DNA from: Octopus vulgaris
Taxonomy: Eukaryota
Length of the DNA: 64,000 nt
Direction: 5' to 3'
Assembly: GCA_951406725.2 (NCBI GenBank)
Contig: OX597833.1
Location: forward strand, 50,034,001-50,098,000
Position 1 is the first letter of the stretch; each line of letters opens with the position of its first letter. The notes beneath the pieces were generated by a model. The model was not told the DNA's origin, did not search any database, and saw only the letters and a list, made by a program, of their open reading frames with translations. Both the position numbers and the translations under genes were made by a program. Positions 8,021 through 59,410 of this stretch are shown piece by piece.

Positions 8021-8252
8021 GGCGGTAGTACTGGCAGAATCGTTAGCACGCTGGGCGAAATGCTTCGCAGTATTTCGTCTGCCGCTACGTTCCGAGTTCA
8101 AATTCCGCCGAGGTCGACTTTGTCTTTTATCCTTTCGGGGTCGATTAAATAAGTACCAGTTACGCACTGGGGTTGATATAATTAACTTAATCCGTTTGCC
8201 TGTCCTTGTTTGTCCCCTCTGTGTTTGGCCCCTTGTGGGTAGTAATGAAATA
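8021..8252 (+). mobile_element. SINE family A
   Basis: Full head-body-tail match to other A copies. Confidence 0.85.
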
Positions 8253-9722: not shown

Positions 9723-10389
9723 GTTGTACACTTTATAAACAGTAGTAAAATACATTAAACTAGTAGCACGAGATATACAGGCCCCTGGCATTAATTAATC
9801 TATTTTAATTAACTTTCCGCCAATAACGTTTCGTTTTTATCCTCTTTTATTTTATTTCTTATCATCGTCAATTATTATCTTAATCAATCATGTTCACAAT
9901 CAACGATGAAGATAACCTCTGCTGACTGAACCGAAAGTCACTTGCTATAGATAAAAATATTGATTATATACATAGATGGAAATATAAATTTATAACCATT
10001 GAATACGATAAAAGTACTTGTTTGCCATTTATGCTATCGACCCAGGAAGAAGGAAAGAATAAAGTGAAGATCAGCAGAAATTGAACTCCGAACATAGACG
10101 ATAACTACTTTAGTAATTAAAGTTTTTAGTTTCGTTTTTTCTTTTTTTTTTTTGTTACTGTAAACACATCCGCTTTAATTAGTTAAAATATCCATGTCTG
10201 CAATAGGGGCGCAAAGCCTGAAATTTGTCGATGTTGGGGGCGTAGGGCTGGTCGATTAGACCGGCCCTAGTACTCGATTGGTACTTATTTCCTCGACTAC
10301 GAAAGGATGAATGACGAAGTAGACTTGAGCGGAATTTGAACTCAGAACGTAAGGACGGGCGAAATGCCTCAAAGCATTTTGTCTGGTTA

Positions 10390-22640: not shown

Positions 22641-22642
<2 letters not shown>

Positions 22643-22754
22643 CGGGAAGCTTTATGAAAATAAACAAAAGACGAAGGCAGGTGGAAAACAAACGAACAAT
22701 TGTATTAGTATGGCGCTCAGGAAATATAAATAAAACAAGTCTTTAACGTTTCGA
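22641..22754 (-). repeat. 3' pLTR terminal repeat of the Penelope-like element
   Basis: Identical to 27161-27274 by inspection. Confidence 0.95.
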
Positions 22755-22777
22755 GCCTACGCTCTTCAACAGAAAGA
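22740..22777 (-). ncRNA. Minimal type-I hammerhead ribozyme in the pLTR (core variant CUGUUGA)
   Basis: Minus strand UCUUU-CUGUUGA-A-GAGC(GUAG)GCUC-GAAA-CG-UU-AAAGA: 5-bp stem I, 4-bp stem II, palindromic ACGU stem III; predicted cleavage between 22745 and 22744. Confidence 0.75.
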
Positions 22778-22959
22778 TACACAGAGAGAGAAAAACACAG
22801 AAAGAAGGAGAGAAAAAAAATGCGTGCAGTAGCTAACGAATCAACATGGCGATCTGATTTCGGCCAGAGGTCAAAGATCAAACATGAGACGCGAGAGCGA
22901 AATAAGGGGAGATAATAGGGTTGATAAAAGGGTTGAGGGACCAGCTAAAAGTGCGTGGG

Positions 22960-23275
22960 AGGGGTCTGGATGTGTGTATGTATAGGGTTGGTGTATGTAT
23001 TAGTATGTATAAGGGTGTGTGTGTGTGTGTGTGTGTGTGTATGAGAGAGTATTAGTGCGTAAGATTGGTCTGGACGTGCGTATGTATGGGGTTGGTGTAT
23101 GTATTAGTATGTATTAGTATGTATTAGTACGTATTGGTATGTATAGGTATGTGTGTGTGTTTGTGTGAGAGAGTATAAGTGCGTATGCGGCGTCTGGACG
23201 TGTGTATGTATAGGGTTGGTGTAAGTATTAGTATGTACTAGTATGTATTAGTACGTATTAGTATGTATTAGTTGG
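22960..23275. repeat. Tandem ~105-125-bp units with (gtattagtat)n inside the element's 3' UTR
   Basis: gtctgga(t/c)gtg..tatgtat.gggttggtgta.gtattagtatgta starts at ~22963, ~23068 and ~23192. Confidence 0.8.
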
Positions 23276-23621
23276 TGTGTGTATTAGTATGGCACATCAT
23301 ATGTGATGTGATGTGTAAAGTCATGTGGTGTAGTGAGGAGAAGAGGGGGAGGGGGAGAAGAGGGGGAGAAGGGGGAGAAGGGGAGGGGAAGAAGAGGGGG
23401 AGGAGAAGGGGGAAGAGGAGAGGATGGGGGAGAAGGAAGGGGAGGAGGGTTATGAAGGAGGAAAGAGGGAGAGGGGGAGAGAGGGAGTGAGGGAGCAGAG
23501 AGAAGGGGAAGAGGGAGGGAGAAAGAGGGAAGAAGGGAAGGGGAGTAGGGGTGAAAGGATGAAGGACTGAAGAAGTAGGGGTCGGGGGGAGAAAGGATAG
23601 GTGGGAGGGGGGAGAGGGGGG

Positions 23622-25925
23622 TTAGATGAGGAGGGGGGCAGAGTTGAGACCAAATGGCGTATAAGAGCGAAGAGAGAAGATTAATTCCTGTTCACGGCGC
23701 AAACGGGAATCCGGATGGCCTCTGTGTAAGGACAAACCGAACACAGATAGGTGTTGCAAGGAGTGACCGGTGGAGCGGAAATGGCGTGAGACCGGTGTGT
23801 CGTTCGCAAGGTGGATGTCACGAAGGTGTTCCGCGAACCGGTCAGCCAAGCGGCGTCCCGTTTGTCCGATGTACAAGGAATTGCAGAGAGAGCAAGAGAT
23901 GCAATAGATAATATTGCTGGAGGTGCAGGTGAAGGAGTGGATGATGGGATAGGGTCGATGGTGGGTGCTAGTGAGGCGGGTGGTGTTGGAGAGGTAAGGG
24001 CAAGTGCGGCAACGTGGGCGGGAGCAGGGGAACGAGCCGGGTTGGGAGGTAGGGTCAGGGAAGGAGCTATGGACCAAAAGGTCTCGAAGGTTGTGGGCTC
24101 GTTTGAAAGAGGGGAGGGGTCGGTTAGGGAAGAGGTGTGAAGTGGACGGGTCGGACTGGAGATGACGGAAAGCTCGAAGAATGGTGCGTTGGAGACGTAG
24201 GGTCGTGGGGTGGTAAGTGAGGGGAAAAGGGAGGCGGGAGACTACAGGGCGGGTTCGGGGTGAGAGAGCAGATACACGGTCCACGGACCGTGCTCTGGCA
24301 AGGGCGGTGTGGATAGTGGTGAGGGGGTATCCACGTAGGGTGAAGTGGTGAGCCATACGTTGAGACTGAGTCTCAAAGTCATGGTCGTCACTACAGAGCC
24401 TACGTAGACGGAGGAATTGGGAATAGGGGATGGAAAGCTTGGTGTGTTCTGGGTGGGAGGAAGAGAAGTTGAGGTATGAGTGTGAGTCTGTGTGTTTGTA
24501 GTGAATGGAGGTGGTAAGAGTGGAGTGAAGAATGCTAACCGAAATGTCGAGGAAGGAGACAGAGGTGTTGGAGATAGTGGAAGTGAAGTGGAGGGCTGGA
24601 TGGAAAGATTGGACGAAAGAGAGGAAGGAATCTAGATGTTCGCGGGAGAGTGAGGTGGCACCGATAATGTCGTCAATATAACGACCATATAGTTCAGGAG
24701 TGGGACCAGTGAAATTAGAGAATATTTGGGCCTCAACATAGCCAACGAACAGGTTCGCATAGTTGGGGCCCATTCGCGTTCCCATGGCCACTCCCGAGAC
24801 CTGATGGTAGAACTCGCCCGCGAACGAGAAGCAGTTCAGAGTAAGGACAAGTTCGGCCAGACGAATGAGTGTGGAGGTGTCAGGTACAGGGTTAGAGCGG
24901 AGGTCAAGAAAGTGTCGAAGGGCCTGCAGTCCTTCGTGGTGAGGGATAACAGTATAGAGGCTTTGGATGTCCATAGTAAAAAGGATTTTGGAGGAGCCGG
25001 GAGGAAAGGAGAAAGAGTTGAAAAGCCGGAGAGCATGGTTGGTATCGTGGATGTGGGAGGGAAGAGATGCCACTAGGGGGGCAAGGACACGGTCGAGGTA
25101 TTTAGAGATGAGCTCCGTGGGGCAGTTACAGGCGGAGACGATGGGGCGGCCAGGGTTGTTGGGTTTGTGGATTTTGGGGAGGAAGTAAATGGTGGGGGTA
25201 CGTGGGGTTCGCACAATTAGGTTGGATGCGGTGCGGGGGAGACGGAAGGACGAGATGAGGTCTTGGACGGTAGAGGATACCGTCTGTTGGTAGCTACGTG
25301 TGGGGTTAGAGGGCAGAGGGGAATAGAAGGAGGTGTCATTGAGTTGGCGGAAAGCCTCGGCCCTATAGAGGTCCGCGCGCCACACCACTACAGCTCCACC
25401 CTTGTCAGCCGGTTTGATGATAATGTCAGCGCGCCGTTGGAGGGAACGAAGAGCCAAGAGCTCAGCCGGGGAGATGTTGAGGCGGCGTTGGCGCCTGGAG
25501 AAGTTGAACCGCTCCAATGCACGCTGACAAGCGCCCGCGAAAAGATCCACTGCTAGGATCTGGCCAGGGGCAGGCGTCCACGGGGATGGTCGGCGGCCCA
25601 GGCCAGTGAAGCAGTCGTCCTCTTCGTGGGGTGTGGGTGGCGAGTCGTGGTAATGCGCACCCAACCGGACACGGCGCACAAAGCTGTGGACATCAACTCG
25701 CGTCTGGAATTCCTTACAGGATGGAGTGAGGGGGATGAAACGCAGACCCCTACCAAGGACGGAGCGTTCAGCCGCAGAGAGGGGAAGATCGGGGGGAATG
25801 GTAACAACAGACGGAAGTGGAGAAGGGGTGGGTGGAATAGAAGTAGGAGGGGTGGTAGGTCTCGTGGAGGTCTGAGGGGAGGGATTGTGGAGGTGTGTGG
25901 GGGGTGGTTGGGCGGGGTAGTAGGG
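23622..25925 (-). CDS. Penelope-like reverse transcriptase + GIY-YIG endonuclease (open frame extends upstream of the GTG at 25679 to a TAA at 25926-25928)
   Basis: LSAAERSVLGRGLRFIP, KPADKGGAVVVW, YFLPKIHK, GRPIVS, TMDIQSLYTVIP, GVAMGTRMGPNYANLF, YGRYIDDI; Cys linker PCSRPRCRTCPY; GIY-YIG NIIYCISCSLCNSLYIGQTGRRLADRFAEH..RHF..REQELI..GLN. Confidence 0.95.
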   Translation of the reverse strand, partial: PYYPAQPPPTHLHNPSPQTSTRPTTPPTSIPPTPSPLPSVVTIPPDLPLSAAERSVLGRGLRFIPLTPSCKEFQTRVDVHSFVRRVRLGAHYHDSPPTPHEEDDCFTGLGRRPSPWTPAPGQILAVDLFAGACQRALERFNFSRRQRRLNISPAELLALRSLQRRADIIIKPADKGGAVVVWRADLYRAEAFRQLNDTSFYSPLPSNPTRSYQQTVSSTVQDLISSFRLPRTASNLIVRTPRTPTIYFLPKIHKPNNPGRPIVSACNCPTELISKYLDRVLAPLVASLPSHIHDTNHALRLFNSFSFPPGSSKILFTMDIQSLYTVIPHHEGLQALRHFLDLRSNPVPDTSTLIRLAELVLTLNCFSFAGEFYHQVSGVAMGTRMGPNYANLFVGYVEAQIFSNFTGPTPELYGRYIDDIIGATSLSREHLDSFLSFVQSFHPALHFTSTISNTSVSFLDISVSILHSTLTTSIHYKHTDSHSYLNFSSSHPEHTKLSIPYSQFLRLRRLCSDDHDFETQSQRMAHHFTLRGYPLTTIHTALARARSVDRVSALSPRTRPVVSRLPFPLTYHPTTLRLQRTILRAFRHLQSDPSTSHLFPNRPLPSFKRAHNLRDLLVHSSFPDPTSQPGSFPCSRPRCRTCPYLSNTTRLTSTHHRPYPIIHSFTCTSSNIIYCISCSLCNSLYIGQTGRRLADRFAEHLRDIHLANDTPVSRHFRSTGHSLQHLSVFGLSLHRGHPDSRLRREQELIFSLRSYTPFGLNSAPLLI

Positions 25926-26530
25926 TTAGGTGTAGGTGGATGGAGCCTAACGGGAGGGGAGAAGGGGTTGTAGGGAGGGGCAGTGGGGTTAGGTGTGGGT
26001 GGATGGAGCCTATCGGGAGGGGAGAAGGGTGGTGGAGGAGTTGGGGTAGTGGCGTCGGGTAGGGTGGAATGGAAGAGTGATTGGAGTTTACGAAGTTTGG
26101 TATCAGAAAGAAATTGATGGAAGAGTTGATTCAAATGGATAATGAAGCGTAGCGTGTTTGGAGCATAGAGAGGCGGCAGAGAGGAGAAGAAGGTGGAGAA
26201 AGCAGGAGGAAGAAGGCGGTTGATGGCATGTAGTTTGGAGAGATTGGAGCGAATGGTGGCCCGCATAAGGCGGTAAGATGTGGTGCGGAGTATGGGTAAG
26301 ATGGAAGAATCCGAGTGGAGAGCAGGGTGGAAGTGGAGGCGGAAACCTTTAGGGATGAGTCGGTGATGTAGGCAGCGGCTTAGGAAAGAGACATGGCTAG
26401 AGAAGCGGGTTTTTTTAAAAAGAAGTAGAGAGAGATTAACGGACGGCTGAAGGCAATATACAGGAAGCGAACGTAGATGATCCTTCAAACGGTGATGGAG
26501 GGTGAGGAGGTAGGACCTAGGATCCGGCAT
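25553..26530 (-). CDS. N-terminal part of the Penelope polyprotein (ATG 26530, MPDPRSY...), separated from the RT frame by a -1 shift
   Basis: FLSRCLHHRLIPKGFRL resembles the N-terminal motif of long PLE proteins; Pro-rich linker with a 21-aa duplication; adding 1 nt between ~25925 and ~25810 would fuse both frames into a 969-aa ORF. Confidence 0.75.
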   Translation of the reverse strand: MPDPRSYLLTLHHRLKDHLRSLPVYCLQPSVNLSLLLFKKTRFSSHVSFLSRCLHHRLIPKGFRLHFHPALHSDSSILPILRTTSYRLMRATIRSNLSKLHAINRLLPPAFSTFFSSLPPLYAPNTLRFIIHLNQLFHQFLSDTKLRKLQSLFHSTLPDATTPTPPPPFSPPDRLHPPTPNPTAPPYNPFSPPVRLHPPTPNPTTPPNHPPHTSTIPPLRPPRDLPPLLLLFHPPLLHFRLLLPFPPIFPSLRLNAPSLVGVCVSSPSLHPVRNSRRELMSTALCAVSGWVRITTTRHPHPTKRTTASLAWAADHPRGRLPLARS

Positions 26531-27160
26531 GATGGGATAGCGGAAAAAAAAACGTTCGAAAAAACAAAAAAAAAAAAAAAACAAAAAACAAAAATTATCG
26601 TATGAAAAAAATAGAAGAAAAGGATAGCGAAAAAAGGGGAAAAAACAAACGTTCAAAAAAAACAAAAAAATAATAATCGTATGAAAAAACTAGATAAGTA
26701 AGCGATAGGGGCAGAAAAGACGGGGCAAACGGAAAAGGGAAAGAAAGAAGGGAAGCAGAGAGAGGGGGAGGCAAAAAAGGGGGTGCAGGCAGAGGAAACG
26801 GAGTATGGACATCCAGAGAGGGAAGAAAGACGGAAAGGAGAACAAAAATTCAGGAAAATGTGGGAAGCATGAAATGAATGTAAAAAAAGTGGTAATATAA
26901 GAGAAAATAAAAATACAACAAACGGGACAGTTTATGCGAACAAGTTCAAGGTTGAAAGTTCAAGGTGAGAAATATGTAGACGTCGTGGTATATTTTTTAA
27001 GGATTTCACATCAATGCAAAGTCACTTTGATCCGCGAAAGAGAGGTGCAGCCAATGGTAAGTATCCAAGAGGTAAAGAAAATCCAAGGTAGAGGTAAGTG
27101 TTGATAGTGGTATTGGTAGAATATAGGATGAAAGTGAGACCACGTGAGCGCATAATATAT

Positions 27161-27274
27161 AACGGGAAGCTTTATGAAAATAAACAAAAGACGAAGGCAG
27201 GTGGAAAACAAACGAACAATTGTATTAGTATGGCGCTCAGGAAATATAAATAAAACAAGTCTTTAACGTTTCGA
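27161..27274 (-). repeat. 5' partial pLTR of the Penelope-like element
   Basis: Identical to 22641-22754; starts inside the hammerhead (TCGAAACGTT). Confidence 0.95.
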
Positions 27275-32005: not shown

Positions 32006-33009
32006 AATAAAACAAAATCAAAATACAGAGGTGACATATTGAAACAGACAGAGAGTAACACACTGTTACACACATACAAAAACGCACGTAGATCTTGTCT
32101 TGCAAATCAATGCAAAACCGGCTTGTATGAATGTGGGTAGGATTTTTAATGAGAAATCGACCCATAAAACCTGAAAATCTATTCATAGCTTATAGAAACT
32201 GGCCGTAATTTTTTTCCTTCGTTACGATCGCTTCAATAATACATGGTACAAATCCATCCTGATAATGAATTATCGTGTAATCCTGGATTCACATTTTGGC
32301 ACAAGGCCAATGATTTCGGTGAAGCGGAGTCTAGTGGTAATCGGGTATATATTTTATGGACTCCGAAAGAATGAAAAGCAAAGTCGACCTCGGTGGACTT
32401 TGAACTCAGAATCTAAAAATACGGACGAAATGACGCTGAGCACTTTGACTGGAATACTAAGGATTCTCCCATCTTGCTATGAAAGATATAACGAAAATGA
32501 TTATCTTTATATCTTTCTAAAGAAATTGTACGGTCGATAAGGGAAACAACTGCTGATTCGAGCTCATAGTTTTCAATTCATTTTCAGATCCCGTGGGTAG
32601 ACTCCCAACGATTTCATCACCGTTTATCAGAGGCTGAATGATGTATCTGCTATGTTATAAAGATTGCTAATTTCAACTATTATTGCTTCTGTCATCCATA
32701 ACGAATACGTGTTCAGCCTGCGGGCTTATTTCGACATAAATGAATATATCAATCACGGTTTTACAATGTACGCAGCGGTTGATATTTGTCTTAGCTGGCG
32801 ATTTCCAGGGAATATTTGCTTCTGATGAAGCGCAAAGAGAGAGAAATACGTAATTTACAATGTCACCTCATCAGCCGGAACATTTTCATCTGCGACTGTT
32901 ACATTTCTGCTTTTTAACACTACACATCTGTAGGAGATGCTTGGGATGAACGCTACAGTTTGTCAGATGGTCAATAAAGTATCCGCTTTTAGCATGATCT
33001 ACATATTGG

Positions 33010-57335: not shown

Positions 57336-57677
57336 TATGTTTGCATTTAAACTTGCTCTATAAACATTTGTAAGCAGAACAATAAGCATGTACAAGAATT
57401 TTCTTAAGTAGAACACGAAACTAAATTCTTCGCCAAATGGTTATTTAAATCCCAGCGACGAAACTTCGTTTATTTCTTGAGAAACAAGTTCCTTCCAAAT
57501 GCTTTTCTCAGTAAGAATTCAAAGAATGGGAGAGAAAAAAAGGTAGAATTACATAATGTTGATGACAGATAGGTAACAGGAAATGAACTAGATGCGTATC
57601 ATATATACTTTAACATCTTATGCGATATACTACTATCTACCCTGATGTGTGCATGTGTGTGTCTCTTGGTTGTGTGA

Positions 57678-57836
57678 AGTTAAGGTCTACGTAATCTATG
57701 GTCTAAATTAAAGTCTTTCTAATTTATGGTCTATGTAATCTATGGTCTAAGTTGAGGTCTTTGTAATTTGAGGTCAATGTAATATTTGGTCTAAGTTAAG
57801 GTCTATTTAAGATCTATATAATCTACAGTCCAAGTA
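57678..57836. repeat. Degenerate short-period tandem repeat (..ggtcta.gtaat.ta..)
   Basis: Recurrent aaggtctacgtaatctatggtctaagtt variants. Confidence 0.7.
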
Positions 57837-57889
57837 ATCGGATTTATTACCACTGCCTACCATAAAACTACACTTTTAAGCCCATTGTT

Positions 57890-58275
57890 TACATTATTTA
57901 CATTCGACGGGTATTTGACCTCATCTTAACTACTATGACATACGACCACGGGCATATGGCGTAGTGGTTAAGAGCTCTGGCTACTAACCCCAAGATTTCG
58001 AGTTCGATTCCAGGTAGTGATGTGAATATTATTATTATTTTTAATAATAATAATAATGATAATGATGATAATAATAATAAAATAATATCAACAACAAGAT
58101 CAAAAAATACCTTAGAAATGAGAACCCAAGTTCAAAATTTCTCCAAGACATCTCATGAAGGCTGGAGGGTGTATAAGCTGAAACTTTGTGTTAACAACAA
58201 ACAAGGTGAGGACAAATATCCGTCAAATGTAAATAATGTACGTAATTCCTCATCTCTTAAATATAGAACTGTACA
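57890..58275 (+). mobile_element. tRNA-headed element with hammerhead-like tail and an inverted 5' partial copy
   Basis: tRNA-like head 57950-58020 (TGGCGTAGTGG A-box, GTTCGATTCC B-box); (AAT)n; GACAT-CTCATGA-A-GGCT..AGCT-GAAA-CTTT-GTGTT at 58147-58192; 57890-57927 is the reverse complement of 58203-58240. Confidence 0.65.
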
Positions 58276-58990
58276 ATTCTAAGTTCATTTTGGGCTGCGC
58301 TACTTCACATTATTAGCTTTCCTTGTTCGGTAATAGCTGAATGATACAAAAATGTAAAACTATTCACATTCACAAAATTATTGGCGAGGGTAAATAATAT
58401 AAAGTAATACAGTAGTGTAATGCAAAAGCTAAGAAATCAGTGATTACATCCAGGACTTGCAATAAGCGAATGCTAAATTAATTTCTCCAGCAATATATTA
58501 AGTAAACTGTGTATAAGATTTGTTACTTATTTCTTACTGAGAAAACGCAATGTCTTATTGAAAGAGACAACGAAACACTTGTAGCATGAACTAGACTATC
58601 TATCTATACGTTATCTCAGCAATAACAAAATGGCGTATATTTTTAGCTTATTCAAATTTCCTTTCTGCTAGTGTATTTATAAAATGTCTATTATATATCC
58701 ATCCTATTGCTTATTTTAGATAACATCTCATTATAAGATTTAGCAAAATCTTTGTTATTGTAAGAGAAAAAAATTTGAATTCTAACATTAGCTGAAAAGT
58801 TCGCGTGTTTTCCTCTATCAACAATTTAACAATTAGATATATTTTTATGAAACACGGTGTTATGGCAACCAGCCAGTATTATACAGCTTCATACATCAGT
58901 TCAACTCAGGACAATTTATACTTTCGGAAGAATTCACCAAACTTTATCTAAACTGTATATATTGCTATTTTATTATATATATATATATAT

Positions 58991-59410
58991 ACTCTTTTAC
59001 TCTTTTACTTGTTTCAGTCATTTGACTACGGCCATGCTGGAGCACCGCCTTTAGTCGAACAAATCGACCCCAGGATCTACTCTTTGTAAGCCTAGTACTT
59101 AATCTATCGGTTTCCCTTTTGCCGAGCCGCTAAGTTACGGGGACGTAAACACACCAGCATCGGTTGTCAAGCGATGTTGGAGGGACAAACACAGACACAC
59201 AAACATATACACACACATACATATATATGTATATACATATATACGACGGGCTTCTTTCAGTTTCCGTCTACCAAATCCACTCACAAGGCATTGGTCGGCC
59301 CGAGGCTATAGTAGAAGACACTTGCCCAAGGTGCCACGCAGTGGGTGGGATTGAACCCGGAACAATGTGGTTGGTAAGCAAGCAACTTACCACACAGCCA
59401 CTCCTGCGCC
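58991..59410 (-). mobile_element. SINE family B, full length
   Basis: Match to family B consensus. Confidence 0.9.

Follow-up and report, generated by a model that had tools for sequence, protein, structure and literature searches.

An abundant octopod repeat with a tRNA-like head and a hammerhead-bearing tail is probably copied by a Penelope-like element

The stretch of Octopus vulgaris DNA analysed here (64 kb; hereafter the window) is AT-rich animal DNA that is rich in microsatellites and SINE-like repeats. Positions 57946-58273 of the forward strand hold a composite element of 328 bp, in which a tRNA-like head (57946-58021) is followed by a degenerate (AAT)n spacer (58022-58102) and a hammerhead-bearing tail (58103-58273). 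Up to a first 3' end at 58240 the tail resembles a Penelope pseudo-LTR (pLTR), with borders taken from contigs and from related spurious ORFs. Behind that end it carries an optional 3' extension of 33 bp (58241-58273), the 'tail' signature of Penelope-like elements, and the element's end at 58273 is set by the loose ends of contigs. A piece in the opposite orientation lies just upstream of the head. Its first arm (57890-57927, minus strand) is a 5'-truncated tail copy that matches 58203-58240, begins exactly at the first 3' end of the family and lacks the extension found on the direct copy. The piece continues as a copy of head positions 57955-57973 (57924-57942, minus strand, 16 of 19 identical), which overlaps the tail arm by 4 nt. 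Neither blastn nor nhmmer found a second copy of head or tail within the window, if the inverted arm and some weak similarity to the heads of other SINEs are set aside. The copy at the locus is short (<700 bp), non-coding and one of many, as SINEs are, and its ORF relatives are spurious only. The window also has at least two more SINE-like families that are abundant and whose tRNA-like heads are weakly related (e.g. 8058-8182, 10251-10380, 32333-32477 and 59020-59410). A degenerate minisatellite (57680-57804; period 44, 2.8 copies, 85% matches, single-copy depth) lies just upstream of the element.

The head contains an A box at 57957-57967 and a B box at 58002-58010, in line with the Pol III boxes noted there by the first-pass annotation. 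They form the sole strict A..B pair in the window; at least one such pair arose in 33 of 300 shuffles, so that the pair by itself is weak evidence. The head is also in the register of a class-I tRNA. Position 1 is the G at 57950, the distance from U8 to G53 is 45 nt, a 7-nt CU...AA loop occupies positions 32-38 (57981-57987) and the variable loop has 5 nt, in canonical tRNA numbering. The cloverleaf stems are decayed, and no tRNA was called in the head by ARAGORN or Rfam (no covariance-model match). When folded freely, the head and the hammerhead of the window itself did no better than shuffles. With boxes at canonical spacing, a tRNA register and a cluster of 5' ends at 57946 (see below), the element has the kind of head that is expected of a SINE, that is, one derived from tRNA, 5S or 7SL RNA with internal Pol III boxes. 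The annotated (AAT)n spacer was recovered by TRF with a period of 3 and 15.7 copies (58042-58087). In this copy the spacer includes a T5 run (58038-58042), a Pol III stop, and there are no T4 runs from 58043 to 58273.

The minimal type-I hammerhead layout reported in the tail by the first-pass annotation is present at 58147-58192. Stem I is formed by 58147-58151 and 58188-58192 and stem II by 58160-58163 and 58176-58179, with the core CTCATGA at 58152-58158 and GAAA at 58180-58183. As had been noted, the motif has suffered damage in this copy, where 58154 is C and 58185 is T; cleavage is predicted after 58187. A relaxed scan for minimal hammerheads on both strands of the 64 kb yielded two sites, where 100 shuffles gave 0.05 on average. 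One is this motif; the other (22777-22740) falls within a pLTR, that of an intact Penelope-like element, and served as a positive control. Rfam matched neither hammerhead of the window; since it misses that of the resident Penelope-like element too, its silence is uninformative for 58147-58192. Minimal hammerheads have a short helix I, one additional base ahead of helix II and a palindromic remnant of helix III, and did not cleave as monomers (PMC4209133). The gap from GAAA to stem I in the octopus motif is only 4 nt (58184-58187), which is the minimal layout and not the canonical helix III of the schistosome elements Sm-alpha and Sj-alpha. The locus has a single hammerhead and not the tandem units, each with a complete hammerhead, that define retrozymes. 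Because of the T5 run in the spacer and the broken hammerhead core, the copy at the locus is probably dead.

The family was examined with contigs from four of 24 listed runs, X1 (organism A), X5 (organism B), X14 (organism E) and X10 (organism A; RNA by guess), which were aligned to 57560-58560 at 80% likeness. In X1 the summed contig depth, which is no copy number, was about 50 in the flanks and up to 2.5 million over the head and 6.2 million over the tail. The shape was the same in X5, X14 and X10, with about 16-54 in the flanks of the DNA runs and 0.5-7 million over head and tail, that is, four to five orders above the flanks. In each of the three organisms examined the element is thus a sharply bordered repeat of very high abundance. 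One X5 contig, with 10 differences, enters the head from the left flank, so that organism B shares the insertion at the locus. Two spurious ORFs that translate the tail, P0001 (78% identical) and P0013, bear the database label Octopus bimaculoides, which makes the family octopod. P0013 is the gene model 'dystrobrevin beta isoform X1' of that species, and its first ~25 residues come from the tail of the element, through either exonisation or an error in the gene model.

Pattern scans gave no hits in viral contigs or prokaryote genomes, and in metagenome contigs none and then one chance match in an unrelated, GC-rich, coding-like stretch. Two single-protein searches returned no match, an alignment-based search returned eight proteins, none of them new, and P0009 had no match in viral contigs. 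A single 41-nt match of the head to phage records (E 8) was disregarded.

In the family majority the hammerhead core is intact and both stems pair better than in the copy at the locus. Base differences from the family were taken from 40 of the 61 difference rows. G is the majority letter at 58154 (99.6, 95.4, 96.0 and 99.5% of depth in the four runs) and restores the CUGAUGA core, an outcome on which the first-pass annotation had made its reading depend. Majority C at 58151 (92-99.8%) converts a G-U pair of stem I to Watson-Crick C-G, and majority C at 58175 (95-99%) adds a fifth G-C pair to stem II. Positions 58179 and 58185 lie outside those 40 rows and were inferred from the codons of 18 hammerhead units in 14 spurious ORFs (10 units of the close family, 8 of a related tandem family), counted after a false pattern match had been discarded and an overlooked unit entered by hand. 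Codon 58184-58186 reads R, H or C in 14 of the 18 units (6/10 in the close family alone), and codon 58178-58180 reads P in 10 and L in 5 (5 P and 3 L among the 10 of the close family). These residues fit CCG and CGT together with their CpG decay products, and hence point to C58179 and G58185. The majority letters undo the decay of this copy and do not amount to covariation. The family very likely has a full minimal hammerhead core with the features given above for minimal hammerheads (PMC4209133) and, with 58179 and 58185 supplied by the codons, a minimal type-I hammerhead in its terminal module, as is expected of a non-autonomous Penelope-like element.

The other point on which that annotation had staked its proposal was whether head and tail occur together at other loci. 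They do so in 7 of the 15 junction rows listed (114 in all). In six of these, an inverted tail piece is joined to 57940-57951, the piece being cut at 58155, 58166, 58222, 58224, 58226 or 58243, and the seventh is an internal deletion. The short side has at least 30 letters in 4 of the head junctions listed. Side lengths of 31 and 52 equal the exact distance to 58273, from which we infer the opposite-strand orientation of the joint. Of the remaining listed junctions, four connect an inverted tail with a direct tail that is 5'-truncated, and four lie within the tail. Beyond those 15, two further head-tail joins were found: one is another deletion form, and in the other a tail runs into a head as a direct tandem. 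The deletion forms connect 57969 to 58186 and 57975 to 58236, and the tandem joints are 58271-58214, 58238-58207 and 58244-57946. An independent copy is represented by ORF P0012, which reads through the end of a head, an N-rich spacer and a tail in that order. Its head match was equalled by 3 of 3000 shuffles of its N-terminus, but in 25 of 500 trials in which all 14 proteins were shuffled. P0012 is the only one of the 14 ORFs in which the head is present, and pairwise BLASTP of the head frame against it gave no alignment.

These joins bear on the possibility that no composite family exists and that pLTR fragments of an abundant, ATT-favouring Penelope-like element have landed repeatedly behind a tRNA SINE that ends in (AAT)n. 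Such recurrent nesting would be in keeping with the preference of Penelope-like elements for microsatellites (PMC8557442, in its accessible part) and with the cutting at ATT by an anole element (PMC11167929, likewise in part). It would also agree with a tail depth that climbs toward the 3' end, as in truncated Penelope copies, and with a head depth (2.5 million) that is higher than that of the 5' tail (0.6 million). This excess may reflect heads without this tail, or fewer contigs recruited there by the damaged copy. The contigs are cut within the spacer and none among those shown crosses it; the longest aligned ones start at 58100-58108, and many stop at 58237-58241. However, nesting predicts that the inverted copy lies at the spacer, whereas 6 of the 15 junctions listed (of 114) place it 150 bp off, at the 5' end of the head. 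The inverted copy at the locus moreover contains head sequence, head-to-tail deletion forms exist elsewhere, and P0012 joins spacer and tail in the same register. We therefore regard recurrent nesting as quite unlikely.

The inverted piece at the locus is informative about the template from which it was made. The first-pass annotation had described it as an inverted copy of the tail, 38 bp long. That arm is real, with 34 of 38 positions identical, but its extent had been set too short, as the piece runs on to 57942 and measures 53 bp (57890-57942), with both tail and head sequence in it. When the same overlap was required, the head match was equalled by 5 of 20000 random 15-mers of the window, and by 513 of 20000 when it was not. 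Because the inverted copy joins head and tail sequence, its template held both together. The inverted copy at the locus is a head-plus-tail deletion form.

Several marks of insertion resemble those of Penelope-like elements, which carry a tail of 30-40 bp, often at one end only, and an adjacent inverted 5'-truncated copy at the 5' end (PMC8557442, available part). According to the accessible part of PMC11167929, this tail is unique to Penelope-like elements and owes its origin to a pair of sites, downstream of the hammerhead, at which RT starts. In the octopod family, loose ends gather behind 58240 and behind 58269-58273 in all four runs (among 24 rows listed of 1056); X1 has 279 of them at 58240 and 303 at 58273. 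The family thus has two 3' ends that are 33 bp apart, and the optional tail falls in the 30-40-bp range. Both are represented at the locus itself, where the inverted arm starts exactly at 58240 and the direct copy stops at 58273. Inverted 5'-truncated copies are found at the locus and in 10 of the 15 junction rows listed (of 114), and partial tandems at the three joints given above. No TSD of at least 6 bp was found at the locus with either 3' end.

The same marks were used to weigh the most conventional explanation, that of an ordinary LINE-dependent tRNA SINE that holds an old pLTR fragment, its inverted repeat being a local rearrangement. SINEs are defined as LINE-dependent (PMC3531059, accessible part), and octopus genomes contain many LINEs, while their unclassified SINE families number in the hundreds (PMC13282606, accessible part). 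Against this, the simple-repeat 3' tail that goes with a partner LINE is not what the element has. Its microsatellite is internal, and its 3' end, without simple repeat or poly(A), is a hammerhead module with two sharp ends 33 bp apart that the LINE explanation leaves unaccounted for. Inverted truncated copies recur at many loci and the TSD is missing at this one. Mobilization by a LINE is accordingly very improbable in our judgement.

A predicted stem-loop spans the first 3' end (58204-58255), with a 9-bp stem (58204-58212/58247-58255) and an inner 5-bp stem (58227-58231/58239-58243). Majority A at 58206 and at 58242 converts two of its G-U pairs to A-U. The folding z-score for 58200-58260 was -2.0 for the sequence as it is and -3.2 with majority letters. 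As a candidate RT-initiation structure it is suggestive only, because the score drops to -0.4 (-1.1 with majority letters) over 58188-58273. A recurrent short variant occurs before 58226 in all four runs (9-135 contigs, median 13-17 letters), and resembles a small duplication or indel in this stem-loop; it is a likely marker of a subfamily. Counted from the predicted cut, the far 3' end is 86 nt away, near the RT start region of the anole element at 85-92 nt past its cut (111-118 minus 26; PMC11167929, in its available part), whereas the same distance is 104 nt in the Penelope-like element of the window.

The latter is an apparently intact element on the minus strand (22641-27273) with an ORF for RT and a GIY-YIG-like domain (23622-25925) and an overlapping upstream frame (25553-26689). 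The GIY-YIG-like motif was recognized by eye. The element's minimal hammerhead (22777-22740) has the core CTGTTGA, its 3' end is repeated in part at 27273 as an exact direct copy of 113 bp, and (TA)n abuts both ends. A zinc-finger-like linker suggests that it is of the Neptune or Nematis type. As a partner of the composite family it was ruled out, since its pLTR is unrelated to the tail (best E 0.77). The proposal of the first-pass annotation that the composite element is mobilized by Penelope machinery is strengthened by its paired 3' ends, by inverted 5' copies of varying extent and by the missing TSD at this copy, but not by the resident element. That comparison covered the one Penelope-like element in the 64-kb window, and the available part of PMC13282606 counts 190 such families in O. 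vulgaris. Four ORFs (P0005, P0009, P0010 and P0014) contain a related hammerhead module, which in the first three forms tandem units of ~43-44 codons (~130 bp) in long ENA contigs. To judge from its sequence, this related family could be a retrozyme-like array or a pLTR tandem of the partner Penelope-like element, and it is the best lead to the partner's pLTR.

It is also conceivable that the tRNA-like head is passive cargo on a non-autonomous Penelope-like derivative, which moves as a unit and obtains its RNA through Pol II read-through or tandems; the element would then not be a strict SINE. The T5 run in the spacer of this copy and the decayed cloverleaf would fit a passive head, as would the existence of direct tandems and of many head-less truncated forms. 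Short non-autonomous Penelope-like elements are known (MRC1 in PMC8557442, accessible part; Heliconius in PMC6685494), and no head was seen in the tandem units of P0005, P0009 and P0010. On the other hand, the largest cluster of 5' ends among the rows listed lies at 57946 in 3 of the 4 runs, 4 nt before tRNA position 1, as a Pol III promoter of the internal kind would predict. The two boxes are intact and canonically spaced, and no T4 run follows between 58043 and 58273. A passive head is, in our view, unlikely. In the three DNA runs, a motif of ~14 bases immediately 5' of the head was observed in 79-102 contigs per run. The motif is absent at this locus, and nothing in the window truly matches it. 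A longer subfamily, or the sequence that flanks a master copy, might be behind it, and the 5' end may extend further in some copies.

Taken together, we consider that this is probably a high-copy, tRNA-headed element of octopods, likely transcribed by Pol III and likely copied as a unit by the RT and GIY-YIG endonuclease of a Penelope-like element. That it is copied as a unit by a Penelope-like element appears highly probable. We lean, with less assurance, to the stronger reading in which a major octopus SINE is a true Pol III SINE that is partnered by a Penelope-like element and so stands outside the LINE rule. As part of this reading, a cis-module of ~170 nt, with hammerhead, stem-loop and double RT start, would make any Pol III RNA copyable by a telomerase-related RT.

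The most likely history begins with a Penelope pseudo-LTR fragment that entered a simple tRNA SINE at its (AAT)n tail, as the preference for ATT would suggest. In master copies, the Pol III transcript that starts from the head would read through the spacer and carry the Penelope recognition module. The Penelope-like protein might then bind the 3' stem-loop and nick AT-rich DNA. On uncleaved RNA, reverse transcription would begin from one or the other of two internal positions, 58240 and 58273 in this copy, and would thereby give rise to the two 3' ends and to frequent 5' truncation. A second priming would lay an inverted truncated copy against the 5' end. Since cleavage after 58187 would part the head and its promoter from the 3' ends, uncleaved RNA is the more likely template of full-length copies. 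In the anole system, hammerhead mutations were without effect on insertion and uncleaved RNA was the main in vitro substrate (PMC11167929, available part). Most likely, the hammerhead was inherited with the pLTR module, acts only in dimers or together with protein, and is no required step of copying.

The combination of a tRNA-like head and a hammerhead has a precedent that the first-pass annotation did not mention. Sm-alpha and Sj-alpha of Schistosoma were reportedly described by Ferbeyre in 1998 and by Laha in 2000. In these elements, a tRNA-derived Pol III promoter is followed by a type-I hammerhead, and copy numbers are very high (PMC2770079 and PMC6765202, accessible parts). The octopod family is like them in its tRNA-like head before a type-I hammerhead and in its very high copy number. 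In the available descriptions, however, Sm-alpha has a canonical active hammerhead and propagates from tandem repeats by self-cleavage, and no partner is named. The octopod family, unlike Sm-alpha, has a minimal hammerhead of Penelope type, a double 3' end and inverted 5' copies, and the copy at the locus is a monomer.

The octopod family also resembles the pseudo-LTRs of endonuclease-positive elements (Penelope/Poseidon, Neptune and Nematis; PMC4209133, PMC8557442 and PMC11167929, in their accessible parts), with which it shares a helix I of 5 bp, an extra base before helix II and the lack of helix III. The optional tail of 30-40 bp, the inverted 5'-truncated copy and partial tandems are common to both as well. 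Unlike Penelope/Poseidon, Neptune or Nematis, the octopod element has no RT or GIY-YIG ORF, and its tRNA-like head and (AAT)n spacer stand in place of the body. Dependence on Penelope machinery has been proposed for non-LTR retrozymes (PMC7761336 and bioRxiv 10.64898/2026.07.22.740005, available parts). Like these and MRC1 (PMC8557442, available part), the octopod element is non-coding and has a type-I hammerhead, with a proposed reliance on that machinery. Non-LTR retrozymes, as described in the accessible parts of these sources, consist of tandem units with a hammerhead in each, form circular RNA and have no described tRNA head, whereas the copy at the locus is dispersed and has one hammerhead.

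The tRNA head with a hammerhead was thus known from schistosomes, and dependence on Penelope machinery had been proposed for retrozymes; what the octopod family would add, as judged from its sequence, is Penelope insertion marks on an element with a tRNA head. Octopus tRNA-derived SINEs are said to have been reported by Ohshima and Okada in 1994. The octopus SINE families OK, OR1 and OR2 are of tRNA-Arg origin and of a size class similar to that of the octopod element. The family may be one of these three, or an entry in Repbase, Dfam or the library of PMC13282606. No link of OK, OR1 or OR2 to a hammerhead or to Penelope was found in print. The accessible parts of octopus repeat papers name SINEs and Penelope-like elements without linking them (PMC13282606, PMC8967140 and PMC6962438). 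Our search, which lay outside most of the subscription literature and the repeat databases, found no published report of a Penelope-mobilized tRNA SINE or of a cephalopod hammerhead SINE.

SINEs are by definition dependent on LINEs (PMC3899998, accessible part, in agreement with PMC3531059). If the proposed reading is true, Penelope-like elements would be a second kind of SINE partner beside LINEs, and the Penelope dependence proposed for retrozymes would gain a case founded on insertion marks rather than on co-occurrence alone. The octopod family also suggests a re-reading of Sm-alpha. It offers a short natural RNA module for the study of Penelope reverse transcription and of the role of the minimal hammerhead, a role on which this family is informative because cleavage would sever the promoter from the template. 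According to the available part of PMC13282606, SINEs account for 11.6% of the genome of O. vulgaris, in which 893 of the 900 recently active SINE families are unclassified; the family described here may therefore form a notable share of octopus repeats.
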